From Microbacterium sp. (GTDB taxonomy: Bacteria > Actinomycetota > Actinomycetes > Actinomycetales > Microbacteriaceae): a stretch of DNA of 64,000 nucleotides. Each line of letters starts with the position of its first letter. Positions within the stretch are counted from its first letter, which is position 1. The notes under the pieces were generated by a model. The model saw only the letters and a list, made by a program, of their open reading frames with translations. It was not told the DNA's origin and did not search any database. The translations under genes and the position numbers were made by a program. The DNA lies in NCBI RefSeq assembly GCF_017305435.1, contig NZ_JAFKIP010000008.1, forward strand, positions 187,216-251,215, written 5' to 3'. Shown here piece after piece: positions 36,598-57,569 of the stretch.

Positions 36598-36645
36598 CGG
36601 TGATCGAGTGCCGCGGCGGAGCCGCGGAGAATCGGGATCATCGGG
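36598..36645 (+). repeat. REP/MITE-like element, copy d
   Basis: CGGTGATCGAGTGCCGCGGC-GGA-GCCGCGGAGAATCGGGATCATCGGG. The left box GGTGATCGAGTGCC is followed by a 7-bp GC hairpin and the right box variant ATCGGGATCAT. It lies 24-70 nt upstream of the ABC exporter start. Confidence 0.6.
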
Positions 36646-36756
36646 TGCAGGAACGGGGTGGTTCTATCTTCTCCCGTCTTTCCTGTGCGCGGCCTGCGGC
36701 GGCGAGCCGAGCGCCTCTTCCCAGCGCCCGTCCGCGCGCGCCCGTCCTTGCCCGGT

Positions 36757-37650
36757 CTAGGCGTCGAGCTCGCTCGCCCACGGCAGGTCGGCCCCCGTGC
36801 GGCTGACCGTGACCGCCGCGGCGGCGACCGCGCGCCGGCCGATGGCCGCGAGGTCGTCGCCGTCCAGCTCGGCGCCCGCGCGGATGGCGGGCTCGGCGAG
36901 CAGTGAGGCCATGAAGGTGTCGCCTGCGCCGATCGTGTCCACGACGTCGACGCGGGGGGCGTCTACCTCCACCCGGTGCTCGCGGGTCGACAGGGTGGCG
37001 CCGTCGCCGCCGCGCGTGACGGCGACCAGGGCCGGCCCGAGCGCGAGGATCGCGTCGATGACGGCGTCCACGCTGTCGATCGCGAAGAGATACGCGGCAT
37101 CCTCGTCGCTCAACTTCACGACCGTCGCGCGGCGGGCGATCGCCTCGAAGCGCTCGCGCGCGGCATCCGGGTCTCCGACGAGGCCGGGGCGGATGTTGGG
37201 GTCGAACGTGATGACGGCGTCCGGGTGCGCGTCGAGGACGGCCGCCACAGTGTCTGCGCCCGGCTCGAGGAACACGCCGAGCGAGCCGGTGTGGATGACG
37301 GGGACATCGCCGACGGCGACATCGGCCGGGACGTCCCACGAGATGTCGAAGTCGTAGGTCGCCGCCCCCCGCTCGTCGAGCGTCGCGCGAGCGGTGGACG
37401 TCGTGCCGGCGTGGAACGACTCCGGCAGGATCCCGACACCGGATGCCTCGAGGTGACGCGCGATCGCACGGCCGCGCTCGTCGTCGCCGAGCCGCGTGAG
37501 CAGGGCCGCGTCGACATCGCGTCGGGCGAGGCCGAGTGCGATGTTCGCGGGCCCTCCGCCCGGGGTCTCGACCGTCTCGTCGCCGGTCACCGTGATGTCC
37601 ATGAGCGCTTCGCCGATCACGAGGACGGCGGGGGCGTGCGGTGCGGGCAT
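36757..37650 (-). CDS. PfkB-family carbohydrate kinase (fructokinase/ribokinase-like)
   Basis: ORF 36757..37650(-), 297 aa. N-terminal VIGEALMD and C-terminal DTIGAGDTF motifs. Confidence 0.88.
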   Translation of the reverse strand: MPAPHAPAVLVIGEALMDITVTGDETVETPGGGPANIALGLARRDVDAALLTRLGDDERGRAIARHLEASGVGILPESFHAGTTSTARATLDERGAATYDFDISWDVPADVAVGDVPVIHTGSLGVFLEPGADTVAAVLDAHPDAVITFDPNIRPGLVGDPDAARERFEAIARRATVVKLSDEDAAYLFAIDSVDAVIDAILALGPALVAVTRGGDGATLSTREHRVEVDAPRVDVVDTIGAGDTFMASLLAEPAIRAGAELDGDDLAAIGRRAVAAAAVTVSRTGADLPWASELDA

Positions 37651-37720
37651 TCGGGAGTCCTTTCGTCGTCGCCCATTCTGCCCGCTTCACGGTGTCGCCA
37701 CCCGCCGATAGCGTGGGGGC

Positions 37721-38662
37721 GTGCCTTCCTCCGTCATCCGTGCGTCCCGCCTGGCCAAGGCCTACAAGGTGAAGGGGGCGCCCGATTTCCTCGCCGTCGA
37801 CGGGTTGGACTTCGAGGTCGCGCCCGGCGAGTCGTTCGGCCTGCTCGGTCCGAACGGGGCGGGCAAGTCGACGACGATGAAGATGATCGGCGCCGTCTCC
37901 ACGCGCACCGGCGGCGAGCTGGAGATCCTCGGGCTGGACCCCGACCGCCACGGCCCCGAGATCCGGTCGAGACTCGGCGTGGTCCCGCAGCAGGACAACC
38001 TCGACGGCGAGCTCAATGCGCGCGAGAACCTCTACATCTACGGTCGCTACTTCGGCCTGCCCGGGCGCGTGTGCCACCAGAAGGCCGACGAGCTGCTCGC
38101 GTTCGCTCAGCTCGAGGACAAGGCGAAGAGCAAGGTCGACCAGCTCTCGGGCGGCATGAAGCGGCGCCTCACGATCGCCCGCGGCCTCATCAACGATCCG
38201 CGCATCCTTCTTCTCGACGAGCCCACGACGGGCCTCGACCCGCAGGCGCGCCACGTGCTGTGGGACCGCCTGTTCCGCCTCAAGGAGCGCGGCACGACGC
38301 TCGTCCTGACGACCCACTACATGGACGAGGCGGAGCAGCTGTGCGACCGCCTCATCGTCGTCGACAAGGGGCGGATCATGGCGGAGGGCACCCCGGCATC
38401 CCTCATCCGCGAGCACTCCAGCCGGGAGGTGCTCGAGGTGCGCTTCGGCTCCGACCGCAACGCGCCGGCCGCCGAGCGCCTGCAGGGCGTCGGCGATCGC
38501 CTCGAGGTCCTGCCCGACCGGATCCTCATCTACGCGGCCGACGGCGAGGCTGCGCTCGAGCGGGTCACCGCGGCCGGGCTCGAGCCGATCACGTCTCTCG
38601 TGCGTCGCTCCTCGCTCGAGGACGTGTTCCTGCGGCTCACCGGAAGGTCGCTGATCGAATGA
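37721..38662 (+). CDS. ABC-2 type exporter ATP-binding protein (DrrA/NodI-like)
   Basis: ORF 37721..38662(+), 313 aa. GPNGAGKSTT, LSGGMKRRL, ILLLDEPT. Confidence 0.9.
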   Translation: MPSSVIRASRLAKAYKVKGAPDFLAVDGLDFEVAPGESFGLLGPNGAGKSTTMKMIGAVSTRTGGELEILGLDPDRHGPEIRSRLGVVPQQDNLDGELNARENLYIYGRYFGLPGRVCHQKADELLAFAQLEDKAKSKVDQLSGGMKRRLTIARGLINDPRILLLDEPTTGLDPQARHVLWDRLFRLKERGTTLVLTTHYMDEAEQLCDRLIVVDKGRIMAEGTPASLIREHSSREVLEVRFGSDRNAPAAERLQGVGDRLEVLPDRILIYAADGEAALERVTAAGLEPITSLVRRSSLEDVFLRLTGRSLIE

Positions 38663-39579
38663 GCGCGTCCTCCGACTCGACCGCCGACCGGCCCTTCGGC
38701 GGGGCGCCGACGGATGCCGCCGTGACGGCCCTGCCCCACCCGACGATCGACGAGCTCCGCGCCGAGGCCCTCGCGTGGGCGCGCAAGCCCCGCCGCTTCG
38801 GCAGCTGGTACGTCACCGAGCACATGGTGCGCGCGATGCGCGCGTACGGCTGGACGATCGTCGTCGGCGCCGTCGGTCAGCCGATCCTGTACCTCCTCGG
38901 TCTGGCCGTGGGTCTCGCCGCCCTCATCCAGGTGCCGATCGTCGACCACGGCGTCACGGTGAGCTACCTGATGTTCGTCGCGCCGGCCCTCCTTGCCACC
39001 GCGACGATCTCGGTCGCGAGCGAGGAGATGACCTACCCCGTGATGGCGGGGTTCAAGTGGCGGCGCTACTTCTACGGCTTCAACGCGTCACCGCTGTCGA
39101 GCCCACAGATCGCGAACGGCGTGATCGCGGGCGCGACGGCGCGCATGGTCGTGGCCGCGGCAGCGTACTACCTCATCGTCTGGCTGCTGCCCTTCGGCGC
39201 GGTCCCGAACCCCGCGACCGGCTGGCTCGCGATCGTCGCGGGCGTGCTCGCGGGGCTCGCCTTCGGCGTGCCGCTCATGGCCTACGCGGGGTCGATCGAG
39301 GACGACAAGGGGCAGTTCGCGCTCGTGCAGCGGTTCCTCTTCATGCCGATGTTCCTCTTCTCCGGCACGTTCTACCCCCTCGACACCCTGCCGGTGTGGC
39401 TGCAGTGGATCGGCTGGATCTCGCCGCTGTGGCACGGCGCCGAGCTCGGCCGCGTCGCCACGTACGGAGCGGATGTCGCCCCCGTGATGATCGCGGTGCA
39501 CCTCGCGTATCTCCTCGTCCTCATCGTGGTCGGCTACCTGTGGGCGCGGCGCGTGTTCATCGCGAGGCTCGCGAAATGA
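38659..39579 (+). CDS. ABC-2 type transporter permease
   Basis: ORF 36976..39579(+) trimmed to ATG 38659 (ATGA overlap). A hydrophilic N-terminus is followed by six TM segments. Confidence 0.82.
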   Translation: MSASSDSTADRPFGGAPTDAAVTALPHPTIDELRAEALAWARKPRRFGSWYVTEHMVRAMRAYGWTIVVGAVGQPILYLLGLAVGLAALIQVPIVDHGVTVSYLMFVAPALLATATISVASEEMTYPVMAGFKWRRYFYGFNASPLSSPQIANGVIAGATARMVVAAAAYYLIVWLLPFGAVPNPATGWLAIVAGVLAGLAFGVPLMAYAGSIEDDKGQFALVQRFLFMPMFLFSGTFYPLDTLPVWLQWIGWISPLWHGAELGRVATYGADVAPVMIAVHLAYLLVLIVVGYLWARRVFIARLAK

Positions 39580-40397
39580 CCGCCGCCGTGACCGAGGCGA
39601 GCATCCGCGGCGGCGGTGTGCGCGCGCTCTGGGCGGGCAATCCGCAGGCGGTCGTGCAGCGCGGGCTCATCGCCGCCCGCTCGTCGAGCTGGGCGGTCGT
39701 GCTGTCGGGGTTCTTCGAGCCCGTCTTCTACCTGGCATCCATGGGCATCGGCCTGGGTGCACTGGTGGGCGACGTGCAGACCTCGCAGGGCATCGAGGTC
39801 AGCTACGCGGCGTTCATCGCGCCGGCCCTCCTCGCGGTCTCGGCGATGAACGGGGCGATCTACGACTCGACGTGGAACGTGTTCTTCCGCCTCAACTACG
39901 GACGGCTCTACGAGGGCATGCTCGCGACGTCGCTCGGGCCGCTCGACGTGGCACTCGGCGAGATCCTCTACGCGCTCCTGCGGGGGCTCGCGTACGCCAC
40001 GGGGTTCATGATCATCATGCAGATCCTGGGGCTGAACCTGTCGTGGACGGCGATCCTCGCCCTCCCGGCCGTGCTCCTCATCGCGTTCGGCTTCGCGAGC
40101 CTCGGGATGGGCGTCACGAGCTACATGAAGACCTTCCAGCAGATGGACTGGATCAACTTCGTCCTCCTGCCGATGTTCCTCTTCTCCGCGACGTTCTATC
40201 CGATCAGCGTCTACCCCGAGTGGGTGCAGCACGTCGTGATGGCGCTGCCGCTGTGGCACGGCGTCGAGCTCATCCGCGGGCTCACGACCGGTGTCCTCGG
40301 CGTCGGCATGCTCTGGCACGTGCTGTACTACGTCGTCATGATCGCGGTCGGTCTCGTCTTCACGACGCGGCGATTGCGAGCCCTGTTCCTGGACTGA
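39576..40397 (+). CDS. ABC-2 type transporter permease (second)
   Basis: ORF 38775..40397(+) trimmed to ATG 39576 (ATGA overlap). Six TM segments. Paralogous to the preceding permease (shared PLWHGxEL motif). Confidence 0.82.
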   Translation: MTAAVTEASIRGGGVRALWAGNPQAVVQRGLIAARSSSWAVVLSGFFEPVFYLASMGIGLGALVGDVQTSQGIEVSYAAFIAPALLAVSAMNGAIYDSTWNVFFRLNYGRLYEGMLATSLGPLDVALGEILYALLRGLAYATGFMIIMQILGLNLSWTAILALPAVLLIAFGFASLGMGVTSYMKTFQQMDWINFVLLPMFLFSATFYPISVYPEWVQHVVMALPLWHGVELIRGLTTGVLGVGMLWHVLYYVVMIAVGLVFTTRRLRALFLD

Positions 40398-40402
40398 GGG
40401 TG

Positions 40403-40448
40403 AGGTGAGGGATGCCGCGCAGGCGAGCCCGCACGGCATCCCTCACCT
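40403..40448. terminator. Hairpin between the convergent ABC-2 permease and MHS transporter genes
   Basis: AGGTGAGGGATGCCG ... CGGCATCCCTCACCT, a 15-bp perfect stem with a 16-nt loop. Confidence 0.55.
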
Positions 40449-40465
40449 CCTGCCGGTGACGCCGG

Positions 40466-41860
40466 TCAGAGCGATCCGGTCTCGCCGAGACCGATGTTCG
40501 TGTCGTAGTCGACGTCCTTCGTCTCCTTCGAGAGCAGCAGGGCGATGAGGGTCAGCACGGCCGAGCCGCTGAGGTACAGGCCCACGAGCCAGGGCTGCCC
40601 GCCCGCGGCCGCCCACAGGCCGACCGCGACGAGAGGCGCGAGCGCCGCGCCGAGGATCGACGACACGTTGTACGAGATCGCCGAGCCCGTGTACCGGACG
40701 TTGGTGGGGAAGAGCTCCGGCAGCACCGCGCCCATCGGGCCGAACGTCGCGCCCATCAGCATGAACCCGATGATGAGGAAGGCCTGGGCGAGGGCCCCGG
40801 TGAACTTCGCGTCGAGCTGCGGCATGAGGAAGACGTTGAACATCAGGCCGAAGACCGCGATGGCGACCGTGATCCAGATGAGGAGCTTCCGGCGCCCGAT
40901 GGCGTCGGCGATCGGCCCCGACAGCAGGGTGAAGATGCCGAAGAACAGCACGCCGACGATCTGCATGATGACGAAGTCGGTGTAGCCGAATCCGAGGCCG
41001 GGGACCGGGGCATCCGTGGGCTTGGTGCCGTAGGAGAGCGTGAAGCTCGTCATCAGGTAGAAGAGCACGTACGTCGCCAGCATGATGAACGTGCCGAGGA
41101 CGAGGTTCTTGGTGTTCGTGCGGAAGACCTCGCCGAGCGGGAATCGGCGGATCGCACCGGTCTTCTCGGCCTTCGTGAACGTCTCCGACTCGACGAGCTT
41201 GAGGCGCACCCACAGGCCGATGATGACCATGACGGCCGAGAAGAGGAACGGCACCCGCCAGCCCCACGCGAGGAACGCCTCGGAGCGCTGCGCCGGGCCG
41301 TCGGGGTGGGGGAGGGCGAAGTTGATGAGGAGGAAGATCGTGTTCGCGATGATGAACCCGATCGGAGCACCCAGCTGCGGGAACGTGCCGTACCAGGCGC
41401 GCTTTCCCTTCGGAGCGTTCTCGGTCGCGACGAGCGCGGCGCCCGACCACTCGCCGCCGAGCGCGAAGCCCTGGAACAGGCGCAGGACGAGGAGGAGGAG
41501 CGCCGCCCACCAGCCGATCTGGCCGAACGTGGGGAGGCATCCGATGAGGAACGTCGCGATCCCCATCGTGAGGAGGGACGCGACGAGTGTCGCCTTGCGG
41601 CCGAAGCGGTCGCCGAAGTGTCCGAAGACGACGGCGCCGATGGGGCGCGCGACCATCGCCGCGCCGAAGACGGCGAACGACGACAGCAGAGAGGTCGTGT
41701 CGTTGCCGGTCGGGAAGAAGAGGATCGGGAAGACGAGGACGGCGGCCGTCGCGTAGACGTAGAAGTCGTAGAACTCGATGGTCGTGCCGACGAGGCTCGC
41801 GGTGATGACACGCGAGCGCGGGTTGGCGGGCGCGGCGGGGGCCGCGGTTGCAGTGGACAT
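40466..41860 (-). CDS. MFS transporter, metabolite:H+ symporter (MHS) family
   Basis: ORF 40466..41860(-), 464 aa. IEFYDFYVY and GHFGDRFGRK motifs, typical of ProP/KgtP/ShiA-like symporters. Confidence 0.9.
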   Translation of the reverse strand: MSTATAAPAAPANPRSRVITASLVGTTIEFYDFYVYATAAVLVFPILFFPTGNDTTSLLSSFAVFGAAMVARPIGAVVFGHFGDRFGRKATLVASLLTMGIATFLIGCLPTFGQIGWWAALLLLVLRLFQGFALGGEWSGAALVATENAPKGKRAWYGTFPQLGAPIGFIIANTIFLLINFALPHPDGPAQRSEAFLAWGWRVPFLFSAVMVIIGLWVRLKLVESETFTKAEKTGAIRRFPLGEVFRTNTKNLVLGTFIMLATYVLFYLMTSFTLSYGTKPTDAPVPGLGFGYTDFVIMQIVGVLFFGIFTLLSGPIADAIGRRKLLIWITVAIAVFGLMFNVFLMPQLDAKFTGALAQAFLIIGFMLMGATFGPMGAVLPELFPTNVRYTGSAISYNVSSILGAALAPLVAVGLWAAAGGQPWLVGLYLSGSAVLTLIALLLSKETKDVDYDTNIGLGETGSL

Positions 41861-42049
41861 GGGCGGAAGAGCTACCTAACGATGTCGGTTCGTAGGTCCT
41901 CGTGGGACGCGCCGGTGGCGAGCGTCCGGGGCAGGGGTGGCGCGGCGGGCGCGACGGCTGTGTGGGCACCGGGGGCGCCGGCGGTGTCCCGGCGCACGAG
42001 AGACGATCCTACGCCGCTGTCACCGTCTCGGTGCCACGGACGGTGAGAC

Positions 42050-42400
42050 TCAGCGCCAGAGGACGGCGAGCGCGGCGTTGAGGAACGTCAGGATGCCGAT
42101 CGACCAGAAGAGCGCGGGAGCGACGGACCCGTTCCTGCGCTGGCGGGCGGTCCCGATGCCGAGGAGGGCGCCGATCGCGAGCAGCACGACGAGCTTGACG
42201 CCGAGCTTGGTGTAGTTCAGCGAGTACTCGATGCCCCACGGTGCGGCGAGGGCGAGGCCGGCGACGGCGGCGATGACCATGCCCCAGGTCATCAGCCGCG
42301 TGATACGGCGCTGACCGATCGCTTCGACCGCCCACGCCCCGAAGAGGATCGCGAAACCGGTCAGGTGGACGAGGACGACGGCGTGACGCAGGATCTCCAT
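42050..42400 (-). CDS. Small integral membrane protein (about 4 TM), unknown function
   Basis: ORF 42050..42400(-), 116 aa. Strongly hydrophobic and sits in its own intergenic slot. I recognise no homology. Confidence 0.6.
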   Translation of the reverse strand: MEILRHAVVLVHLTGFAILFGAWAVEAIGQRRITRLMTWGMVIAAVAGLALAAPWGIEYSLNYTKLGVKLVVLLAIGALLGIGTARQRRNGSVAPALFWSIGILTFLNAALAVLWR

Positions 42401-42425
42401 ACCCTCAGCCTAGCTGAAGGATCAC

Positions 42426-42460
42426 GCGCCCCGCATCCGCGCCTCGCGGATGCGGGGCGC
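42426..42460 (-). terminator. rib operon terminator hairpin
   Basis: GCGCCCCGCATCCGC-gcctc-GCGGATGCGGGGCGC, a 15-bp perfect stem, 17 nt downstream of the ribH stop on the minus strand. Confidence 0.6.
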
Positions 42461-42476
42461 GGGACGGCGGGCTGGA

Positions 42477-42950
42477 TCAGCCGCGCAGTTCGCGCAGGAG
42501 GAGCGCGGTGCGCAGGGCCGCATCCGCCGCCTCTGCGCCCTTGTCCTCCTTCGAGCCGGGGAGGCCCGCGCGGTCGATGCCCTGCTGCTCGTCGTCGAGC
42601 GTCAGCACGCCGAACCCGACCGGCTTGCCGGCATCCAGCGCGACGCGCGTGAGGCCGTCGGTCGCGGCCGAGGAGACGAACTCGAAGTGGGGAGTGCCGC
42701 CGCGGATGATGACGCCGAGCGCGACGACGGCGTCCGCCCCGGCATCCAGCGCGGCCTTCGCGGCGACAGGCAGCTCGAACGACCCCGGGACGCGGACGAG
42801 CCGCCAGTCGGCTCCGGCGGCGTCGAGCACACGCTCGGCTCCGGCGATGAGCCCGTCGGTGATGACGTCGTGCCACTGGCCGGCGACGACGACGACGCGC
42901 AGGCCCGCCGCGTCGACGGGCTGGGTCTGGGGGGCTCCGTGGCCGCTCAT
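42477..42950 (-). CDS. ribH: 6,7-dimethyl-8-ribityllumazine synthase
   Basis: ORF 42477..43442(-) trimmed to ATG 42950 (ATGA overlap with ribBA). Sequence [16 protein letters not shown]...VPGSFELP...[14 protein letters not shown]. Confidence 0.95.
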
Positions 42951-44910: not shown

Positions 44911-44911
44911 G

Positions 44912-46072
44912 TCAGTCCTCTCCGTCGTCCGCTGATCGCCCGTCAACCGGTGGTCGAGTGCCGGCGCGGGGGTCAACCGGTGGTCGAGTGCCGGCGCGGA
45001 GCGCCGGTGTATCGAGACCATCCCGCAGCGCCGGCCGCGCGACGATGAGGAGGTCGTCGCCGAGCAGCTCCGTGGCATCCACCCGCAGGCGCCGCTGCGC
45101 ACCGATCGTCGCCACGCCGAGGTCGCCCGTCGCGAGGCGGTCGCCGCCGAGCAGCGTCGGCGCGACGTACACGAGCACCTCGTCGACGAGCCCGGCCCGC
45201 AGGAACGCCGAGGCGAGGGTCGGGCCGCCCTCGACGAAGACGCGCTGGATGCCGAGTTCGCGGAGGCGGCCCAGCAGGTCGGGCAGGTCGTCGCCCTCGT
45301 CCTGCATGAAGGGGAGGGGGTGCGCGCGCACGCGCGCCTCCTGCGGAACGGCGCGGGTGCCCACGACGACAGGCCGCGGCTGCGTTTCGTAGAGGGTGCC
45401 GTCCGTGCGGCGGGCCGTGAGCGCGGGGTCGTCGGCGAGGAGCGTTCCGGTGCCGACGACGACCGCATCGGCCTCCGCGCGCCGCATGTGCACGTCGGCG
45501 CGTGCGGCGGGTCCGGTGATCCACTGACTGGTACCGTCGGATGCCGCGGCGCGCCCGTCGAGCGACTGCGCCCACTTCACCGTGACGTGCGGACGGCCGA
45601 GCCGCTGCACCGTGAGCCACGAGTCGAGGAGTGCCCGTGAGTCGGCTTCGCCGACGTGCGCCGTCACTTCGATGCCCGCGGAACGCAGGCGTTCGGCGCC
45701 GCCGCCGGAGAGGGCTCCGGGGTCGTCGACCGCATAGACGACGCGGGCGACGCCGGCGTCGATGAGCGCCTCGGCGCACGGGCCGGTGCGGCCGGTGTGG
45801 TTGCAGGGCTCGAGGGTGACGATGGCGGTGGCGCCGTGGGCGGCATCCCCCGTCACCTTGGAGAGGGCATCCACCTCGGCGTGCGGGGTGCCGGCGCCGC
45901 GGTGCCAGCCCTCGGCGATGATCTCACCGGCGGGGGAGAGGAGGACGGCACCCACTTGCGGATTGAGTCCGCGCGGGCCGCGGCGCGCGAGTTCGAGCGC
46001 GCGCGTCATCGCGCGCTCGTCGCCCGCGCTGCGGTCGCCTTCGCTCCGCTCGTGCTCGTCTGCACCGGTCAT
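44912..46072 (-). CDS. ribD: Bifunctional riboflavin-biosynthesis deaminase/reductase, with a repeat-encoded C-terminal tail
   Basis: ORF 44912..46270(-) trimmed to ATG 46072, preceded by GAAGGA (ATG 46009 is an alternative). Deaminase motifs HAEVDAL and PCNHTGRTGPC. The last 37 or so codons are encoded by a repeat element (see findings). Confidence 0.9.
   Translation of the reverse strand: MTGADEHERSEGDRSAGDERAMTRALELARRGPRGLNPQVGAVLLSPAGEIIAEGWHRGAGTPHAEVDALSKVTGDAAHGATAIVTLEPCNHTGRTGPCAEALIDAGVARVVYAVDDPGALSGGGAERLRSAGIEVTAHVGEADSRALLDSWLTVQRLGRPHVTVKWAQSLDGRAAASDGTSQWITGPAARADVHMRRAEADAVVVGTGTLLADDPALTARRTDGTLYETQPRPVVVGTRAVPQEARVRAHPLPFMQDEGDDLPDLLGRLRELGIQRVFVEGGPTLASAFLRAGLVDEVLVYVAPTLLGGDRLATGDLGVATIGAQRRLRVDATELLGDDLLIVARPALRDGLDTPALRAGTRPPVDPRAGTRPPVDGRSADDGED
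44942..45021 (+). repeat. REP/MITE-like element, copy a (left half duplicated, 2 x 30 bp)
   Basis: GTCAACCGGTGGTCGAGTGCCGGCGCGG occurs twice (44942 and 44972). It is followed by the hairpin CCGGCGC-GGA-GCGCCGG and the right box GTGTATCGAGACCATC. The copy lies inside the 3' end of the ribD ORF. Confidence 0.6.
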
Positions 46073-46144
46073 CCGTCGTCCTTCGTCGGTGTCCGGGGTG
46101 TGCGATGCGCGATCGGCACGGCGAGCGCCGCGAACGGCTCCGCC

Positions 46145-46304
46145 CGTGCTGCCTCTCATCCGGACTCGCGGCTTCTTCCTCGCGGAAGAGCACCGCATCA
46201 CCGTCGGTCCCGGAATTCCACCGGGTCGACCCGCGTCGCCTTTCGGGCGACGGGGCTCGCGGACTGTCACCGCCGGTTCGGATTCTCACCGACCCCGGAG
46301 CACG
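46145..46304 (-). promoter_or_regulatory. FMN riboswitch (RFN element) in the ribD leader
   Basis: The reverse strand reads CGUGCUCCGGGGUCGGUGAGAAUCCGAACCGGCGGUGACAGUCCGCGAGC...GGGUCGACCCGGUGGAAUUCCGGGACCGACGGUGAUGCGGUGC...AGUCCGGAUGAGAGGCAGCACG. This matches the conserved RFN core with a closing P1 helix CGUGCU/AGCACG. It lies 72 nt upstream of the ribD ATG. Confidence 0.92.
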
Positions 46305-46381
46305 TGTGTTCTGCTCTCGATCCTACTCAACGCGCGCCGTCCGGTTTCATTCCGTGTCGGCGGCCCGGCGATACCGGTTGT

Positions 46382-46500
46382 CCCCGGTGATCGAGTGCCG
46401 CCGCGCCGCGGCGGTGCCCCCGGTGATCGAGTGCCGCCGCGCCGCGGCGGTGCCCCCGGTGATCGAGTGCCGCCGCGCCGCCGCGGTGTATCGAGATCAC
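46382..46500 (+). repeat. REP/MITE-like element, copy b (3 tandem 36-bp units)
   Basis: CCCCGGTGATCGAGTGCCGCCGCGCCGCGGCGGTGC occurs twice. The third unit ends in GCGGTGTATCGAGATCAC. The copy lies between the fpg 3' end and the rib promoter/riboswitch. Confidence 0.7.
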
Positions 46501-47369
46501 TTCAGCAGCCGGGAGAGCCGCCGATCGGCCAAGAGCTTCCCACCCGTCTGGCACGTGGGACAGTACTCGAGAGAATTGTCCGCGAAGAAGACGCTGCGGA
46601 CCTTGTCCCCGCACACCGGACACGCCTCGCCGCGGCGGCCGTGCACGGCCATGCCGCGGCGCTTCGCGTCCTTCAGGTCAGCGGGCGGCCGACCGGATGC
46701 CTGGGCCACGGCATCCGTCAGCGTCGACCGCATCGCCTCGTAGAGGCGCGTGCGCTCGCCGGGGTCGAGGTTCGCCGCGAGGGCGTACGGCGACATCTTC
46801 GCGGCGTGGAGGATCTCATCGGAGTACGCGTTGCCGACCCCGGCGATGATCGACTGGTCCCGCAGGACACCCTTGATCTGCGTGCGCCGCCCCTCGAGGA
46901 GCGCCGCGAAGACGTCGCGCGTGAACGCCGCGTCCAAGGGGTCGGGACCGAGGCGGGCGACCCCCGGAACACCCTGCGGATCGCGGACCACGTAGACAGC
47001 GAGCGACTTCTTCGTCCCGGCCTCGGTGAGGTCGAGCCCCGAGCCGTCGTCGAAGCCGACGCGCAGGGCGATCGGCGTCTTCCCCGGTCGGATGACGGTG
47101 CTGGGGAGTTTCTCGTACCAGCGCAGCCACCCCGCCTTGGCGAGATGGAAGATGAGGTGGAGCGGGGCGTTCGCGGCATCCATCGACAGGTCGATGAACT
47201 TGCCGTGCCGGGTTGCCGCAGTCACGTGAGCGCCGCGGAGCGCCTCGATGGGCGGGTCGTAGGTCTTCAGCGCGGCGATGTTCGCGACCATCGCCGTCGT
47301 GACCCCGAGGCCGACCGCGCGCTCGGCGAGGAAATCGACGAGACCCTGCACTTCGGGCATCTCCGGCAT
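46497..47369 (-). CDS. Fpg/Nei family DNA glycosylase / AP lyase
   Basis: ORF 46497..47750(-) trimmed to ATG 47369, giving the catalytic N-terminus MPEMPEV. C-terminal zinc finger CPVCG...CPTCQ. Confidence 0.9.
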   Translation of the reverse strand: MPEMPEVQGLVDFLAERAVGLGVTTAMVANIAALKTYDPPIEALRGAHVTAATRHGKFIDLSMDAANAPLHLIFHLAKAGWLRWYEKLPSTVIRPGKTPIALRVGFDDGSGLDLTEAGTKKSLAVYVVRDPQGVPGVARLGPDPLDAAFTRDVFAALLEGRRTQIKGVLRDQSIIAGVGNAYSDEILHAAKMSPYALAANLDPGERTRLYEAMRSTLTDAVAQASGRPPADLKDAKRRGMAVHGRRGEACPVCGDKVRSVFFADNSLEYCPTCQTGGKLLADRRLSRLLK

Positions 47370-49116: not shown

Positions 49117-49149
49117 CTGTCGGGACGCCGACAGCGGATCGCGCGTCGC

Positions 49150-49249: not shown

Positions 49250-49317
49250 CCGCGCGGCCCGACGAACCGCCCCGAAGCGCGGCCCGGCGAGCCCAGGTTG
49301 GCCCGGGGCGGCCCGGA

Positions 49318-50331
<1,014 letters not shown>

Positions 50332-50407
50332 CTATTGAGTGGATGCCACGGGCCCGATCACGTCCGGACTGAGCGCAGCCCGCGTGCGGCCGGCACCCCG
50401 CCGCCGA

Positions 50408-51241
50408 TCAGAACGCGTAGTCGGCGACGACGGGGGCGTGGTCGCTCCAGCGCGTGTCCCACGACGGCGCGCGCACGATGCGGTAGTCGACCACGCGCTC
50501 CGCGAGCGCGGGCGTCGCGAGGTGGTAGTCGATGCGCCAGCCGGTGTCGGTGTCGAACGCCTTGCCGCGGTTCGACCACCACGAGTACGGCCCATCGACC
50601 TCGCCCGCCCAGCGCCGACCCACGTCGACCCAGCCGAGCCCCGGTCCGGTCGATCCGTCCACACCCGTCACCGCCTCGCCCGCGGGTCCGAGGAACCGGT
50701 CGAAGTAGGCGCGCTCCCGCGGCAGGAACCCCGCCTTCTTGACGTTGCCCCTCCAGTTGCGGATGTCGAGTTCTCGGTGCCCGACGTTGAGGTCGCCCGT
50801 GATCACCGCGAGGGGGCCGAGCTGCGGCATCCGCGCCGTCATCGCGTCGAGGAAGGCGTACTTCGCGTCCTGCTTGGGTGTGCCGTCTTCGCCGGTGAAG
50901 ACGTAGGCGCTGACGATCGTGACGGTCTCATCGCCCATGCGGATATCCGCCTCCACCCACCGGCCCTTCGAATCGAGCGCGTCGTCGCCGAGCTCGATGC
51001 GCCAGACGTCGAGCGGCTCCCGGGTGGCGATCGCGACGCCCGCGCGCCCCTTGGCGAGCGCCTCGTCGTTCACGACGTGCCACCCCGGGAGCGCCGCAGC
51101 GAGGTCGGATGCCTCGGCGCGCACCTCCTGCAGGGTCAGGACGTCGACATCCGCGGCATCCAGCCAATCCCGCATGCCCTTCCGGACGGCGGCGCGGATG
51201 CCGTTGACGTTGACGGATGCGAGGCGGAGGTTCTGGGGCAC
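50408..51241 (-). CDS. xthA: Exodeoxyribonuclease III (AP endonuclease)
   Basis: ORF 50408..51241(-), 277 aa. LASVNVNGIRAA, LQEV, and C-terminal SDHAPV motifs. Confidence 0.93.
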   Translation of the reverse strand: MPQNLRLASVNVNGIRAAVRKGMRDWLDAADVDVLTLQEVRAEASDLAAALPGWHVVNDEALAKGRAGVAIATREPLDVWRIELGDDALDSKGRWVEADIRMGDETVTIVSAYVFTGEDGTPKQDAKYAFLDAMTARMPQLGPLAVITGDLNVGHRELDIRNWRGNVKKAGFLPRERAYFDRFLGPAGEAVTGVDGSTGPGLGWVDVGRRWAGEVDGPYSWWSNRGKAFDTDTGWRIDYHLATPALAERVVDYRIVRAPSWDTRWSDHAPVVADYAF

Positions 51242-51250
51242 CGGGACAGC

Positions 51251-52444
51251 CTAACGAGGGCCGCCCACACCGCCGATTCCGGCAGGCGTCTCCGCCTCGA
51301 GCCGGGCGAGTTCGTCCTCCGCGCGCCGCAGGTCGCGGGTCGCGGCCCAGCGTCCCCACCACGCCGCGTCGGCGCGCGCGACATGCGCATCGCGGACGCG
51401 CACCCGCGCGGCGATCAGCAGCGCCTCGTGCTCCTGTCGCCGGCGTTCCTCCTCGGTGACCGGCACCATCGGCACGTCGGCATCCCGCGCGGCGAGGGCG
51501 ACCCAGGATGCCGCGACGAGGATGACGATCCCAACGAGTCGGAACCACAGCAGGAAGCCGATGAACACCGAGAAGGTCGCGAGGAGCGGGTTCGAGGGGG
51601 AGTAGTAGAGGAGGAGCCCCGCGCCGAGCTGGAGGACGACGAGCGCGCCCCCGCCGAGCGCGGCGCCGGGGAGGATGAGCCGCCAGCGCAGCGAGGTTCC
51701 AGTGAGGAACCGGATGAGCGCTGCGAGGGCGGCCGTGTTGATCACGAACGCGACGAGCGCCGACGCGAGACGCCCGGCGATCCAGACCCATCCCGACGAG
51801 CTCTTCCAACCGAAGAACTCGAAGACCGCCTCGATCACCCCCGTGGTGACGCCGGCGAGAGCCGCGCCGATCAGCAGGGCCAGGCCGAACATCGCCGCGG
51901 CGACGAAGTCGCGCGCCTTCAGCAGCACGTAGTTGCGCGTGTCGAACGGCAGGCCGAAGATGTCGCGCACGGCGCGGCGTGTGAAGGTGACGAACCCGAT
52001 CGCCGTCCACAGGGCGACGACGAATGCGACCGCACCGGTGATCGCGAGGACGCTGCCCGACTGCTGGGCGATCTCCGCGACATCCGTCTCGGTGACGAGG
52101 CCCTGCCCCTCCTCCTTGCCGATGATCCCCGGGATGTACGAGTTCATGATCGAGATGAGCCTGGCGACCGCCGACGCGCTGCCGCCCAGCCAGATGCCGA
52201 CGACGGCGAAGGCCGTGTAGATGACGGAGAACATCGCGAACAGCGACTGGTAGCTGATCGCCGCGGCGAGGAGGAACCCGTTGTTGCGCAGGAAGTTCCG
52301 CCACACCCGGATCGGGAACCATGCGAGCGTCTTCCGCGTCAGGTTCGTCGCCCGCTCGATCGGCTCGTCGAGCCGCTCCCGCAGGGGAGACTGCTCCCAG
52401 CGGGCACGCCAGACGTCGTCGATCCGGTCGGGTGTCTCGCTCAC
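51251..52444 (-). CDS. YihY/BrkB family membrane protein
   Basis: ORF 51251..52444(-), 397 aa. LAAAISYQSLFAMFS motif, six TM segments, and a charged coiled C-terminal tail. Confidence 0.85.
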   Translation of the reverse strand: MSETPDRIDDVWRARWEQSPLRERLDEPIERATNLTRKTLAWFPIRVWRNFLRNNGFLLAAAISYQSLFAMFSVIYTAFAVVGIWLGGSASAVARLISIMNSYIPGIIGKEEGQGLVTETDVAEIAQQSGSVLAITGAVAFVVALWTAIGFVTFTRRAVRDIFGLPFDTRNYVLLKARDFVAAAMFGLALLIGAALAGVTTGVIEAVFEFFGWKSSSGWVWIAGRLASALVAFVINTAALAALIRFLTGTSLRWRLILPGAALGGGALVVLQLGAGLLLYYSPSNPLLATFSVFIGFLLWFRLVGIVILVAASWVALAARDADVPMVPVTEEERRRQEHEALLIAARVRVRDAHVARADAAWWGRWAATRDLRRAEDELARLEAETPAGIGGVGGPR

Positions 52445-52514
52445 GCTGTCAGGATATCGAGCGCGGATGCCGGGCCGAGGACGCGCCCCGGGTGCTGACG
52501 AGCCGCGGGCGCGG

Positions 52515-53279
52515 TCAGTGCCGCAGGACGGCCTGCTTGACCTCGGCGATCGCCTTCGTGACCTCGATGCCGCGGGGGCACGCCTCGGTGCAGTTGAAGG
52601 TCGTGCGGCAGCGCCACACGCCCTCCTTGTCGTTGAGGATGTCCAGTCGCGTCGTCGCCGCGTCGTCGCGCGAGTCGAAGATGAACCGGTGCGCGTTGAC
52701 GATCGCCGCCGGCCCGAAGTACTGCCCGTCGGTCCAGAACACGGGGCACGACGAGGTGCACGCCGCGCACAGGATGCACTTGGTCGTGTCGTCGAAGATC
52801 TCGCGGTCGACGATCGACTGGATGCGCTCCTTACCCGCTTCGGGCTTGGAGTTCGCGATGAGGAACGGCTGCACCTCGCGGTACGACGCGAAGAAGGGCT
52901 CCATGTCGACGATGAGGTCCTTCTCCAGCGGCAGACCCTTGATCGCCTCGACGTAGATCGGCTTCGAGATGTCGAGATCCTTGATGAGGGTTTTGCAGGC
53001 GAGGCGGTTGCGGCCGTTGATGCGCATCGCGTCCGAGCCGCAGATGCCGTGCGCGCAGGAGCGGCGGAAGCTCAGCGATCCGTCGACCTCCCACTTGATC
53101 TTGTGCAGCGCGTCGAGCACGCGGTCGGTGGGATAGAGCTCGACGTCGTAATCGACCCAGCGGGGCTCGGCGTCGGTCTCGGGGTCGAACCGGCGGATGT
53201 TGAAGGTGACGAGGTACGACTGGATCGGGGCCTCGCCCGTCGATTCCACGACGGCGGTATCGTCGGCGACGAGCGTCAT
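52515..53279 (-). CDS. sdhB: Succinate dehydrogenase iron-sulfur subunit
   Basis: C-terminal 254 codons of ORF 52515..53915(-), MTLVADD... Cys clusters CAHGICGSDA, CILCAACTSSCP and CTEACP. The start was placed by codon count. Confidence 0.93.
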   Translation of the reverse strand: MTLVADDTAVVESTGEAPIQSYLVTFNIRRFDPETDAEPRWVDYDVELYPTDRVLDALHKIKWEVDGSLSFRRSCAHGICGSDAMRINGRNRLACKTLIKDLDISKPIYVEAIKGLPLEKDLIVDMEPFFASYREVQPFLIANSKPEAGKERIQSIVDREIFDDTTKCILCAACTSSCPVFWTDGQYFGPAAIVNAHRFIFDSRDDAATTRLDILNDKEGVWRCRTTFNCTEACPRGIEVTKAIAEVKQAVLRH

Positions 53280-55114
53280 CAGTACTTCCTCTCCATCGGC
53301 GGGTAGTTCAACTCGCCCGCCTCGTTCTTCGTGAACACCACCGGCTTCCAGTCCAGACGGATGTGGTCCTCCGGGTCGGGGGAGTGCGGGTCGCCCGTGA
53401 GATAGGCCATCGTGTGCTGCATGTAGTTCTCGTCGTCGCGCTTCTCGTAGTCCTCGCGCATGTGGCCGCCGCGGCTCTCCTTGCGGTTGCGGGCGGCGTA
53501 GGCGACGATCTCGGCGAGGTCGAGGAGGAACCCGAGCTCGACGGCCTCGAGCAGGTCGGTGTTGAACCGCTTGCCCTTGTCGTCGACGTGGATGTTCTTG
53601 TAGCGCTGACGCAGGTCGTGGATCGTGCCCATTACGTTGGTGAGGGTCTCCTCCGTACGGAAGACCTGCGCGTTGGCATCCATCTCCTCCTGCAGCGTCT
53701 TGCGGAGAACCGCGATGCGCTCGGTGCCCGGGTTGTTGCGCAGGCCCTCCAACATCTCGCGGACCTCCTTCGCCGGGTCCTCGGGGAGCGGGACGAACTC
53801 GGCCGTCTTGACGTACTCGACGGCCTGGCGACCCGAGCGCTTGCCGAACACGTTGATGTCGAGGAGCGAGTTCGTGCCGAGGCGGTTGGCGCCGTGGACG
53901 GACACGCACGCGCACTCGCCGGCGGCGTAAAGGCCCGGGACGACGGTGTCGTTGTTCTGCAGCACCTCGCCGTTGTTGTTGGTCGGGATGCCGCCCATCG
54001 CATAGTGCGCGGTCGGCATGACCGGGACCGGCTCGGTCACCGGGTCCACGCCCAGGTACGTGCGCGCGAACTCGGTGATGTCGGGGAGCTTCGTCTCGAG
54101 GACCTCGGCGCCGAGGTGGGTGCAGTCGAGGTAGACGTAGTCCTTGTGCGGGCCGGCGCCGCGCCCTTCGAGCACCTCCTTGACCATGCAGCGGGCGACG
54201 ATGTCGCGCGGAGCGAGGTCCTTGATCGTCGGGGCGTAGCGCTCCATGAACCGCTCGCCCGAGGCGTTGCGCAGGATCGCGCCCTCACCGCGGGCGCCCT
54301 CCGTGAGCAGGATGCCGAGGCCGGCGAGACCGGTCGGGTGGAACTGGAAGAACTCGATGTCCTCGAGCGGCAGCCCCTTGCGCCAGACGATGCCGACGCC
54401 GTCGCCCGTGAGGGTGTGGGCGTTGGAGGTCGTCTTGTAGATCTTGCCGAAGCCGCCGGTCGCGAAGATGACCGCCTTCGAGTGGAAGACGTGCAGGTCG
54501 CCGGTGGCGAGCTCGTACGCGACGACGCCCGCGACCTGGGTGTCGCCCGCGGCATCCTTCACCGTGATGAGGTCGAGCGCGTAGTACTCGTTGAAGAAGT
54601 TGATGCCGAGCTTGACGCAGTTCTGGAACAGCGTCTGCAGGATCATGTGGCCGGTGCGGTCGGCGGCGTAGCACGCGCGGCGCACGGGCGTCTTGCCGTG
54701 GTCGGCGGTGTGACCGCCGAAGCGGCGCTGGTCGATCTTGCCCTCGGGGGTGCGGTTGAAGGGCAGCCCCATGTTCTCGAGGTCGATGACGGCGTCGATC
54801 GCCTCCTTGGCGAGGATCTCCGCGGCGTCCTGGTCGACGAGGTAGTCGCCGCCCTTGACGGTGTCGAAGGTGTGCCACTCCCACGAGTCCTCTTCGACAT
54901 TGGCGAGCGCGGCCGCCATGCCGCCCTGCGCGGCGCCCGTGTGCGAGCGTGTCGGGTAGAGCTTCGTGATGACGGCCGTGCGGGCACCGGGGCCCGCCTC
55001 GATCGCCGCACGCATGCCGGCGCCGCCGGCACCGACGATGACGATGTCGAACTCGTGGTAGTACACGCCGTCACGCAGGACGGCTTCGGGATGCGCGGTG
55101 GTCGCGGTGCTCAC
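53279..55114 (-). CDS. sdhA: Succinate dehydrogenase flavoprotein subunit
   Basis: ORF 53279..55114(-), 611 aa, GTG start. FAD motif [13 protein letters not shown], covalent-FAD His in [14 protein letters not shown] motif. Confidence 0.95.
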
Positions 55115-55172
55115 GTCAGGGATGCCTTCGTCTTCTTCTTCGTCGTCTTCTCGAGCGCGCTCAGGATGCCGC

Positions 55173-55664
55173 TCAGGCGGCCGAGCACATCTCGATCAGC
55201 CAGTCGGTCGTCGAGTTCTCGATGCCCAGGCACGGGTCGAACGTGAAGACGACGAGCGTGCCGAGGAGGATCAGGAACCCGGCCGCGATCCACAGCGCCC
55301 ACACCAGGACCTTGCGGGTGGTCGCGCCGGTCACGTAGTCGTTCACGATCGTGCGCATGCCGTTGGCGCCGTGGATGAGGGCGAGCCACAGCATCAGCAC
55401 GTCCCACCACTGCCAGAACGGGCTCGCGAACTTTCCGGCGACGAACGCGAAGTCGATGCCGTGGATGCCTTCGCCGAGCATCAGGTTCACGAAGAGGTGC
55501 CCGAAGATGAGCACGACCAGCAGCACACCCGAGATGCGCATATACAGCCAGCCGAACTTCTCGAGGTTGCGGCCCCGGCCGCGCGGGCGGGGAGTGCGGG
55601 GGGCGGCGATGTCGGCGAGGTGCGCGTCGAGCTCGCGTTCCTGTGCGTCGTGGACGAAGGACAT
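55173..55664 (-). CDS. sdhD: Succinate dehydrogenase hydrophobic membrane anchor subunit
   Basis: C-terminal 163 codons of ORF 55173..56009(-), MSFVHDAQ... Three TM segments. Position between sdhC and sdhA. Confidence 0.82.
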
Positions 55665-56098
55665 CAGTGACCCCCTCCCGCGTTCGCGAAGACGTTCATC
55701 AGGTGGCGCGGCGCGAAGCCGGCGAGCGTCACGGCCCACAGGCCGATGACGCCCCACCACAGCTGACGCTGGTGGCGCGTCGCCCAGGGCCAGAGATCGA
55801 CCGCGATGATGCGCAGGCCGTTGTAGGCGTGGTAGGCGATCGCGGCGACGAGGAACACCTCGCCGATGCCCATGATCGGGTTCTTGTACGTGCCGATGAC
55901 CGCGTCGTACGCCTCGGGGGAGAGGCGGATGAGCGCCGTGTCGAGCACGTGCACGAGCAGGAAGAAGAAGATGGCGACGCCGGTGATGCGGTGCAGGACC
56001 CACGACCACATGCCCTCATTGCCGCGGTACAGCGTGCCGCGCGGGGTCTTGGACGTGGTCTGGGCTACCGACGGTGTGACGCGTGCTGGTGCAGACAC
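55664..56098 (-). CDS. sdhC: Succinate dehydrogenase cytochrome b subunit
   Basis: ORF 55664..56197(-) trimmed to GTG 56098, preceded by GGGAGGA. MWSWVLHRITGVAIFFFLLVHV heme-ligand region. Confidence 0.85.
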   Translation of the reverse strand: MSAPARVTPSVAQTTSKTPRGTLYRGNEGMWSWVLHRITGVAIFFFLLVHVLDTALIRLSPEAYDAVIGTYKNPIMGIGEVFLVAAIAYHAYNGLRIIAVDLWPWATRHQRQLWWGVIGLWAVTLAGFAPRHLMNVFANAGGGH

Positions 56099-56242
56099 GG
56101 TCGTCCTCCCTTGGTGTGATCGGACGCGACGCTGCGGCGAGCGGGACGTCCGCGGGGCCGCGGGGCCCGACTCGTCGCACACGGGGCGCAATCTCATCCT
56201 AAGTCGCCCTCCCGCGACCCGGCGAGGAAGGGGACCCTAACT

Positions 56243-56260
56243 TCTCTCGATATCGAGAGA
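56243..56260. promoter_or_regulatory. Perfect 18-bp palindrome TCTCTCGATATCGAGAGA between sdhC and manC
   Basis: Read directly from the sequence. It lies 145 nt upstream of the sdhC GTG and 123 nt upstream of the manC ATG, in a 284-bp divergent intergenic region. Confidence 0.5.
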
Positions 56261-56382
56261 TCGGCAGGAAAGGGCCTTCTTTCGGATGGGCGGCGGTCCC
56301 CCGTCTTTCGGGGGTGGAGCGTGGATGCCGCGGGGGATGCGCGCGGACCCTCCCGGAAACATGGGACCGATAGTCTCGAACC

Positions 56383-57498
56383 ATGGTGCACCCCATCGAC
56401 GACTTCTACGCCGTGATCCCCGCCGGAGGGGTGGGCTCGAGGCTCTGGCCCCTGTCGCGGGCCGATGCGCCCAAGTTCCTCCACGACCTCACCGGGTCCG
56501 GCCACTCGCTGCTGCGCGACACGTGGGACCGGCTCGAGCCGCTCACCGGACACGACCGGATCGCCGTCGTGACCGGGCGCGCGCACCGCGCCGCCGTCGA
56601 GGACCAGCTCCCCGGCATCCCCGACGCGAACGTCATCCTCGAGTCGGAACCGCGCGACTCCGCGGCGGCGATCGGTCTGGCGGCCGCGATCCTCCACCGC
56701 CGGGAACCCGACGTCATCATCGGCTCGTTCGCGGCCGATCACGTCATCCGCGTGCTGCCGGTGTTCCACTGGGCCGTCGAGCAGGCCGTCGCCGTCGCCC
56801 GCCAGGGGTACATCTGCACGATCGGGATCACCCCGACCGAGCCCTCCGTCGGCTTCGGCTACATCAAGAAGGCCGACATCCTCACGGTCGAGGGCGCGCC
56901 CGAAGGAGCTCTCGTCGAGCGCTTCGTCGAGAAGCCCGACCTCGAGACCGCCAAGGAGTACGTGGCATCCCGCGACTACCTGTGGAACGCGGGCATGTTC
57001 ATCTCGCGGGCGGACGTGCTCCTCGCCGAGATCGAGGCGAACAACCCCGAGCTGTACGCGGGCCTCATGGAGCTCGCCGAGGCGTGGGACGACCGCGAAC
57101 GGCGCGGCCCCGTCGTCGACCGGGTGTGGCCGCGGCTGGAGAAGATCGCAATCGACTACGCCGTCGCCGAGCCGGCCGCCGCGAAGGGCCGCCTCGCCGT
57201 CGTGCCGGGCCACTTCGACTGGGACGACGTGGGCGACTTCGCGAGCCTCGCGAAGCTCAACTCCGGCGGGCGGAAGAACGATCTCGCGATCCTCGGCGAG
57301 AACGCCCGCATCCTGTCGGATGCCGCGAGTGGCATCGTCGTCAGCCACACGAACCGCGTCATCAGCCTCATCGGCGTCAAGGACATCGTCGTCGTCGACA
57401 CCCCCGATGCCCTCCTCGTGACGACGAGCGAGCACGCGCAGCGCGTGAAGGGCGTCGTGGATGCCTTGAAGCTGACCGGTCGCGGCGACGTCCTCTGA
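56383..57498 (+). CDS. manC: Mannose-1-phosphate guanylyltransferase (GDP-mannose pyrophosphorylase)
   Basis: ORF 56383..57498(+), 371 aa. Nucleotidyltransferase loop VIPAGGVGSRLWPLSR and FVEKP motif. Confidence 0.88.
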   Translation: MVHPIDDFYAVIPAGGVGSRLWPLSRADAPKFLHDLTGSGHSLLRDTWDRLEPLTGHDRIAVVTGRAHRAAVEDQLPGIPDANVILESEPRDSAAAIGLAAAILHRREPDVIIGSFAADHVIRVLPVFHWAVEQAVAVARQGYICTIGITPTEPSVGFGYIKKADILTVEGAPEGALVERFVEKPDLETAKEYVASRDYLWNAGMFISRADVLLAEIEANNPELYAGLMELAEAWDDRERRGPVVDRVWPRLEKIAIDYAVAEPAAAKGRLAVVPGHFDWDDVGDFASLAKLNSGGRKNDLAILGENARILSDAASGIVVSHTNRVISLIGVKDIVVVDTPDALLVTTSEHAQRVKGVVDALKLTGRGDVL

Positions 57499-57507
57499 CG
57501 CGCCACC

Positions 57508-57569
57508 GTTGATCGAGTACCCGCGCGAAGCGCGGGTGTATCGAGATCCGCGCTCGTATCGGGATCATT
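57508..57569 (+). repeat. REP/MITE-like element, copy c
   Basis: GTTGATCGAGTACCCGCGC-GAA-GCGCGGGTGTATCGAGATC, then CGCGCTCGTATCGGGATCATT. It has an 8-bp perfect hairpin and both right-box variants. It begins 10 nt after the manC stop. Confidence 0.6.

Follow-up and report, generated by a model that had tools for sequence, protein, structure and literature searches.

A dispersed two-stem hairpin repeat of Microbacterium and other Actinomycetota and its association with a small GIY-YIG nuclease gene

In the current study, we examined a short hairpin element that occurs at four loci in a 64,000-nt stretch of DNA from Microbacterium sp. (RefSeq assembly GCF_017305435.1, contig NZ_JAFKIP010000008.1, positions 187,216 to 251,215), hereafter the window. 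We consider these loci, with a probability of roughly 0.7, to be solo members of a dispersed repeat family, a strand-asymmetric DNA hairpin that is cognate to a GIY-YIG nuclease of ~95 aa related to the Ssn enzymes. What was observed directly comprises the repeat family with its structure and distribution, the persistence of copies at orthologous sites and the two-way link with the nuclease gene. The element measures ~44 nt in the window and ~40-50 nt across the family, and its four loci are referred to as copies d, a, b and c in order along the window. A preliminary description, drawn from the sequence of the window alone, had read it as a dispersed, structured element resembling repetitive extragenic palindromic (REP) sequences or miniature inverted-repeat transposable elements, a reading that is now supported by its presence in more than 115 genome stretches, by covarying stems and by a specific partner gene. 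That description took the compensated stems as a sign of a folded structure and the constant boxes as a site read by a protein.

The partner gene was recognized by association in both directions, in line with the earlier suggestion that a mobilising gene be sought. The product of a short open reading frame (ORF) inside an element array (locus L111) has a GIY-YIG domain (Pfam PF01541, E 6e-19). The ORFs of this kind are ~95 aa long and consist of a single domain, with PF01541 covering residues 1-72 of 92-96 (E 1e-15 to 1e-19). Among 115 loci of 8 kb that had been selected by the element, the gene lies within element arrays in six, belonging to six genomes, for four of which this was the sole locus examined; for a single-copy gene, we estimate a chance expectation of ~0.2 such loci. 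When the ORFs within 300 nt of elements in these loci were clustered, the only recurrent genes were the GIY-YIG gene and its own neighbours rsmG (gidB) and parA, the latter two recurring in four loci. In the reciprocal test, 80 metagenome loci were selected by protein alignment alone, and the element was detected by a covariance model (E<=1e-5) in 56 of them (70%), with 263 matches at E<=0.01 in the 253 kb that these loci comprise. By a strict pattern, elements adjoin the gene in 37 of the 80 loci, 124 of 165 pattern matches fall within 250 nt of it, and in 22 of 28 cases the closest copies on the two sides of the gene are inverted. Where a RAYT (REP-associated tyrosine transposase), IS200-like or other candidate mobiliser had been suggested as the gene to look for, the partner turned out to be a small GIY-YIG nuclease and no RAYT/IS200 transposase.

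A sister genome of the window's strain encodes one of these proteins, P0003, between gidB and parA and inside element arrays. The same position, between rsmG and parA, is occupied by the nuclease gene in Microbacterium loci (L200 2600-3490; L198, L201, L202), a neighbourhood that usually adjoins the chromosomal origin. In one contig (L199), an identical P0003 protein is followed by malQ, owing to a second location of the gene or to a mis-join at the repeats. A GIY-YIG gene that is 52% identical occurs in Methylobacterium bullatum (L196 1390-1930), where it is flanked by different inverted hairpin repeats of the CACCTCAGGATGAGGTG and GGCCTCGAAGGAGG types, and our model of the element finds no match at this locus or at a Sphingomonas locus. 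Alphaproteobacterial homologs, which reside on plasmids and chromids, were set aside as carriers of the element. These observations suggest that each clade of the nuclease has its own repeat.

The architecture of the element was defined by comparison of its copies. From 5' to 3', GNTG merges into an outer stem of 4-7 bp, followed by the string GAGTR, an inner GC hairpin, the string GTATCGR and the 3' arm of the outer stem, which takes the form GNTGRTY / RAYC.. overall. GAGTR and GTATCGR are invariant, and the inner hairpin is free in both sequence and length. The outer stem had no place in the preliminary description and was found by folding, in which GGTGATC pairs with GATCAYC; in copy a it is compensated (GGTGGTC/GACCATC). 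The compensatory changes claimed at the outset hence hold for two stems, both of which covary. In an unbiased pairing test that required only the two invariant loop strings and returned 397 distinct matches, all three inner pairs of the outer stem were formed in 367 matches, as compared to ~5% expected by chance, and outer-stem positions 4-7 were paired in 95-96%. The alternative pairs seen in this stem were G-C/A-T, C-G/T-A and G-C/C-G. The covariation score of the alignment that underlies the covariance model (A6, 58 rows) was reached in 0 of 500 shuffles. Moreover, although the scan pattern let R and Y vary independently, almost only the combinations ATC...GAT and GTC...GAC were found, and a third subfamily, GTT...AAC, is present in arrays. 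We also considered whether the two boxes might simply be a direct repeat (ATCGAG twice) and rejected this reading, as the GTT/AAC subfamily retains the complementarity and loses the direct repeat.

A partnership of this kind has a published precedent. Chenal et al. (Nat Commun 2025; PMC11893778) described the Ssn enzymes as single-domain GIY-YIG nucleases of ~94 aa (CDD cd10448) whose genes are flanked by hairpin repeats, termed NTS in Neisseria and SRM generally, that occur in hundreds of copies per genome. Binding by Ssn enzymes is confined to the single-stranded form of the repeat, on one strand, and the cut falls a few nt upstream of it; the enzymes are inactive on double-stranded DNA and on RNA, and SsnA shows no RNA binding (PMC11893778). 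SRM were found at 71% of Ssn homolog loci, the hairpin sequence itself matters for activity in Neisseria, and the authors drew the analogy to REP sequences and RAYTs (PMC11893778). The system described here resembles Ssn/SRM in its single-domain GIY-YIG partner (~94-103 aa), in the flanking of the gene on both sides by a hairpin repeat of 20-50 nt, usually as inverted copies, in the dispersal of that repeat through the genome at mostly intergenic sites, and in non-palindromic conserved bases on either side of the hairpin that give it an orientation. Even the proportion of gene loci with a repeat is alike (70% here vs. 71% in PMC11893778). In contrast, NTS/SRM consist of a CGTC tag, a sequence-specific palindrome and CYRG, whereas in the present element the inner hairpin, which varies freely, is surrounded by an asymmetric internal loop (GAGTR / GTATCGR) that an outer stem closes off, and its hosts belong to the Actinomycetota and Chloroflexota, which go unmentioned in the main text of PMC11893778. 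As a canonical comparison set, viral contigs were scanned for exact NTS, and GIY-YIG ORFs were found beside NTS copies (L254, L277 and others). The ORF of L254 has NTS on both sides in the order element(+) - gene - element(-), as in the actinobacterial loci, and the actinobacterial proteins share 29-42% identity with the NTS-flanked proteins (E down to 1.7e-14 by tblastn and blastp). The principle of a gene/repeat partnership is already published; the repeat, the two-stem architecture with its invariant internal loop and the host range are undescribed in the main text of PMC11893778. The element, which could initially be assigned to no known family, can now be placed next to Ssn/SRM. Literature searches with sequence strings of the element returned only unrelated primer matches, and those pairing GIY-YIG with REP-type repeats returned nothing relevant, a broader one leading to PMC11893778.

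The closest relatives of known structure are UPF0213 proteins, a group of GIY-YIG proteins that includes B. subtilis YazA and for which we know of no reported function or repeat association. By sequence, the closest solved structures are PDB 1ZG2 (BH0048) and 1YWL (EF2693), with E of 1e-20 and 2e-15, both deposited as 'Hypothetical UPF0213 protein'. They share with the actinobacterial proteins the motif G-x-GA-x-YT and the small single-domain size.

Several results weigh against a pairing of the window copies with an Ssn-type nuclease and should be set beside the probability given above. A search of the window found no encoded nuclease homolog. The published SRM search string, HGTCWYN(0-2)YYVSBRHN(0-5)WNVSBRGN(0-2)RNCYNB (PMC11893778), matched 0 of 191 elements on either strand and gave 0 matches in the window, with a canonical NTS control matching as it should; in 260 kb of GIY-YIG loci it gave only one stray match. 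The UPF0213 structures 1ZG2 and 1YWL (36-44% identity) are as similar to the actinobacterial proteins as the NTS-flanked proteins are, or slightly more so, a point that bears on assignment to the Ssn subfamily (cd10448). Because the inner hairpin varies freely here and is sequence-dependent in Neisseria, recognition must differ in detail between the two systems. With respect to structure, the pair counts of A6 exceeded those of all slid controls, but they are partly circular in that copies had been chosen with a pairing filter, the test on 397 matches being the clean version. In addition, G-T pairs outnumber A-C pairs in the outer stem (156 vs. 30) and in the inner hairpin (135 vs. 21), yet the excess is gone after exclusion of conserved positions (15 vs. 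13); the wobble-pair asymmetry, which stems entirely from conserved positions, was rejected as a signal of the folding strand. Finally, no empty site or insertion polymorphism was encountered, and a look-up of ManC gave only an identical contig of the same strain.

Within the window, the sequences reported earlier at the four loci read as described, and the components of each locus are as follows.

36599..36642, plus strand: copy d, with left box and hairpin CCGCGGC-GGA-GCCGCGG intact and right box decayed to GAGAATCGGGATC / GAGAATCGGGATCATC; flanked by a pfkB-type kinase gene (36757-37650, minus strand) and, on the exporter's start side, by an ABC exporter gene (34643-36574, minus strand)
44942..44978, plus strand: left half of copy a, truncated; GTCAACC, the left box and the hairpin's 5' arm are contained in the first 30-nt unit (44942-44971), and directly after it comes a second unit that starts with the GTCAACC spacer
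44979..45022, plus strand: copy a, full, GGTGGTC GAGTG CCGGCGC GGA GCGCCGG TGTATCGA GACCATC; within the 3' end of the ribD reading frame, immediately upstream of the ribE start
46382..46457, plus strand: tandem units of copy b, two of 36 nt, each with CCCC, left box and hairpin and lacking a right box
46458..46501, plus strand: copy b, full; with the stop codon of fpg on one side and the rib operon's FMN riboswitch leader on the other
57508..57551, plus strand: copy c, full, GTTGATC GAGTA CCCGCGC GAA GCGCGGG TGTATCGA GATCCGC; starts 10 nt past the manC stop codon
57552..57569, plus strand: extra right-half fragment after copy c, GCGCTC GTATCGGGATCAT (box match 57554-57566), with the same variant right box as copy d

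Across the window, the left box GGTGATCGAGTGCC is found with 0-2 mismatches only at 36599, 44949, 44979, 46386, 46422, 46458 and 57508, always on the plus strand. Thirteen matches with three mismatches represent background, given that shuffled sequences average 16.6 matches in total at <=3 mismatches. The right box occurs exactly or with one mismatch at 45007, 46486 and 57536, and the distance from box to box is exactly 18 nt in all four full copies (4/4). The covariance model scores copy a at 51.2 bits (E 5e-14), copy c at 48.8 bits and copy b at 47.3 bits; its 58 rows include two of these copies, a and b, together with a near-copy of a, while a further row, 44 nt long and identical to copy c, came either from the window or from another locus. 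Copy d, with its decayed right box, scores 17.9 bits (E 0.003). The model found no further convincing copy on either strand of the window. A weak match at 53801-53825 on the minus strand (18.4 bits), which reads GGCCGTCGAGTA..AGACGGCC and lies inside a coding region, is probably due to chance or a remnant that lacks the inner hairpin.

Comparison with a sister Microbacterium showed that these copies persist over evolutionary distance. The window is syntenic with the metagenome-assembled genome (MAG) QFPM01000002.1 at ~84% identity, and copies d, a and b are found there at orthologous sites and in the same orientation, with the invariant boxes conserved while the flanks diverge. The ortholog of copy d (L059) is intact and has the inner stem GCGCC/GGCGC vs. 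GCGGC/GCCGC in the window, a compensated change, so it is the window and not the sister that has lost the right box of this copy. The ortholog of copy a (L078) differs at one loop base only. In the ortholog of copy b (L078), the outer stem is GTC/GAC vs. ATC/GAT in the window, which is again compensated.

The family was traced by scanning one genome per species with the exact pattern GGTGRTCGAGTRCC-N14-24-ATCGRGAYC. This search for further copies, as proposed in the preliminary description, yielded more than 115 genome stretches among the matches listed, nearly all from Actinomycetota; the hosts among these matches include Ilumatobacter (dozens), Microbacterium, Aeromicrobium, Nocardioides, Gordonia, Flexivirga and Gulosibacter. 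A copy in an Anaerolineales MAG (Chloroflexota; L058 5194-5240) is convincing at 44 bits, and one in a Flavobacteriales MAG (L101 7517-7564) is weaker at 26 bits, AT-rich and perhaps real; on the strength of these two copies, the family extends past the Actinomycetota. Pattern matches in Pseudoxanthomonas, Lysobacter, Erythrobacter and Pirellulaceae, as well as in Eisenbacteria, Acidobacteria, Coriobacteriia and an alphaproteobacterial MAG, look like chance, with scores of <=21 bits or no model match at E<=0.01. An Ilumatobacter MAG (L002, L020, L050, L055) contains head-to-head doublets with spacers of ~10 nt, and the right flank ATTGGTGCGCGC is conserved on many of its copies; the Ilumatobacter loci examined showed no GIY-YIG gene. 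In some Microbacteriaceae (L111 4480-6160; L028, L109), the ATC/GAT and GTT/AAC subfamilies alternate in opposite orientation with a perfect palindrome, GTTTCACGTGAAAC, between them, forming composite units of ~130 nt that are repeated many times around the nuclease gene.

With genes in the examined loci called by codon-position GC, element copies were mostly intergenic, 46 lying between convergent genes, 25 in sense and 25 in antisense orientation between co-directional genes, and six between divergent genes. This distribution is REP-like and gives no indication of an RNA role tied to one strand. The shared plus-strand orientation of all four window loci, correctly noted before, had been regarded as unusual for simple terminators and is not significant: four of four has a ~12% chance, and three of the four are inherited orthologs. 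Other genomes also hold both orientations side by side, as in the alternating-orientation arrays of L111, L116, L174 and L200. Relative to the genes, copies a, b and d are antisense to minus-strand operons, and copy c is in the sense orientation after manC.

One alternative is a selfish GIY-YIG gene that, in the manner of homing endonuclease genes, enters repeat clusters already in place, in which case the elements would not be the enzyme's functional substrate and would have spread otherwise or not at all. Some insertion sequences do target REP clusters, the gene is always embedded in element arrays, and the identical P0003 in two downstream contexts, parA and malQ, would fit such an origin, but the malQ context may be an error of metagenome assembly at repeats. 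The protein is also a bare catalytic domain without a DNA-binding domain, the Pfam match spanning residues 1-72 of 92-96, and its recurrence at the same rsmG-parA position in several Microbacteriaceae points to vertical inheritance. Furthermore, the pairing of gene and repeat recurs across phyla with co-varying repeat types, and Ssn homologs bind and cut their own flanking repeats (PMC11893778). Taken together, we regard this explanation as unlikely.

A second alternative is that the element acts mainly as RNA, with a hairpin at the 3' ends of genes that would terminate transcripts, stabilise mRNA or be bound by a protein. The location of copies at gene ends or between cistrons and the stable fold would suit such a role, and by our own reading the internal-loop bases GA.GU / GU.AUC.GA can be written as a kink-turn-like consensus. 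Nonetheless, sense and antisense copies between co-directional genes are equally frequent (25 vs. 25), in the window copies a, b and d, three of four, run antisense to their operons, and no T run follows the hairpin in the four window copies. Rfam held no family matching the element at the gathering threshold in the window, where an FMN riboswitch was the sole match of any kind, nor at E<=1 in four element-rich loci. The partner has a DNA-nuclease fold, and SsnA shows no RNA binding (PMC11893778). The kink-turn reading was set aside in view of the missing transcription-strand bias and the DNA-nuclease partner, and we judge a mainly RNA-based function to be quite improbable.

The least probable explanation, to which we give very little credence, is a classical REP/BIME (bacterial interspersed mosaic element) family mobilised by a RAYT, an IS200/IS605-type tyrosine transposase, encoded elsewhere in the genome: the REP-like size, the GC-rich imperfect palindrome, the preference of intergenic copies for convergent over divergent gene pairs (46 vs. 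6), the alternating-orientation clusters and the head-to-head doublets would agree with it, but in the element-selected loci the 300 nt around elements hold no recurrent family of transposase-like ORFs, the GIY-YIG gene shows a strong reciprocal association, and the element lacks a GTAG tag. As a model of how a repeat and its partner coexist, however, REP/BIME/REPIN sequences with their RAYTs are close. Both systems comprise short, GC-rich imperfect palindromes at gene 3' ends; clusters of alternating orientation, inverted doublets and avoidance of divergent promoters; a partner gene, possibly single-copy, that is repeat-flanked and sits at a conserved chromosomal position; and copies that persist at orthologous sites between species. 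They differ in that the partner here is a GIY-YIG nuclease rather than an HUH/Y1 transposase, and in the lack of the tag. To our knowledge, no strand-transfer chemistry has been described for GIY-YIG enzymes.

Returning to the pairing of the repeat with a cognate Ssn-related nuclease, the following scheme would accommodate the observations. In family-bearing genomes, the gene lies in a dense element array, as a rule with inverted copies on its two sides. Whenever replication, repair or DNA uptake, for instance, leaves the DNA single-stranded and folded, the nuclease may bind one strand of the element, reading the invariant unpaired bases, with the stems needed only to pair, and would then cut the single strand nearby; by homology with Neisseria SsnA/NTS, such single-strand binding and cleavage are plausible. 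The elements may have been mobilised by the nuclease and increased in number as the gene's non-autonomous partners, in the manner of REPs with RAYTs, persisting mostly at gene 3' ends, and a role for the host is conceivable as well. Since the window encodes no nuclease, its copies would be passive sites. A further-reaching proposal, which we put forward tentatively and consider doubtful, is that the system represents a distinct, phylum-spanning class of partnership between GIY-YIG nuclease and hairpin repeat in Actinomycetota and Chloroflexota, in which ~12 invariant unpaired bases are read on a folded strand with free stems, and in which the gene and its inverted elements form an autonomous mobile unit, with solo copies and doublets as its miniature derivatives. 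If this were true, its specificity logic would be unlike that of Neisseria SsnA and could be re-targeted, and it would be a second REP-like system, based on a nuclease rather than a transposase.

The genes around the window copies (ABC exporter, RibD/riboflavin synthase junction, Fpg and ManC) were confirmed by Pfam, and in two cases the element has become part of them. The ribD frame (minus strand, 44912-45022) passes through copy a and the 30-nt partial repeat and ends one base before the ribE start codon. Since RibD_C reaches only to residue 342 of 386, the ~44 C-terminal residues (...RAGTRPPVDPRAGTRPPVD...) are element-encoded, and in the sister species the ribD tail contains several in-frame units of 10 residues (L078 2500-2900). 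Copy b abuts the fpg/nei coding sequence without a spacer, and the GATCA of its 3' arm supplies the stop codon of that gene (TGA, minus strand, 46497-46499). On its other side, it adjoins an FMN riboswitch (Rfam RF00050, 70 bits) at 46144-46305 on the minus strand, upstream of the rib operon. The ribD/ribE arrangement recalls the mycobacterial interspersed repetitive units (MIRUs), in that the element and its 30-nt units are intercistronic and leave the upstream frame open to the next start codon; the likeness concerns this one locus only and comes without sequence similarity, and the present family is defined by its hairpin and nuclease partner.

Both rib loci also carry tandem duplications. 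The left half at locus a is a perfect 30-nt tandem duplication (44942-44999, period 30, 100% match), and locus b contains a tandem repeat at 46382-46488 with a period of 36, 3.0 copies and 98% match. Wherever such duplications were seen, in the window as well as in the sister species (L059 2430-2490; L078 2560-2690 and 4100-4260), they included the 5' flank plus the left half of the element. Their ends vary, lying inside or just past the inner hairpin, and the number of units differs between the two species. Slippage at the hairpin and repair of nuclease cuts are both possible causes.

In summary, a common repeat of high-GC Gram-positive bacteria, absent from Rfam and overlooked by the sole published search motif for such systems, gains a named partner and a testable mechanism. 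The partnership between Ssn-type nucleases and repeats is thereby extended to the Actinomycetota and Chloroflexota with a different recognition architecture. Genome annotation is affected too, in that elements are translated into the tails of proteins and provide stop codons. The system may be a candidate source of new nuclease tools that are both single-strand-specific and sequence-specific, and it is relevant to the question of how such repeats spread and persist in bacterial genomes.

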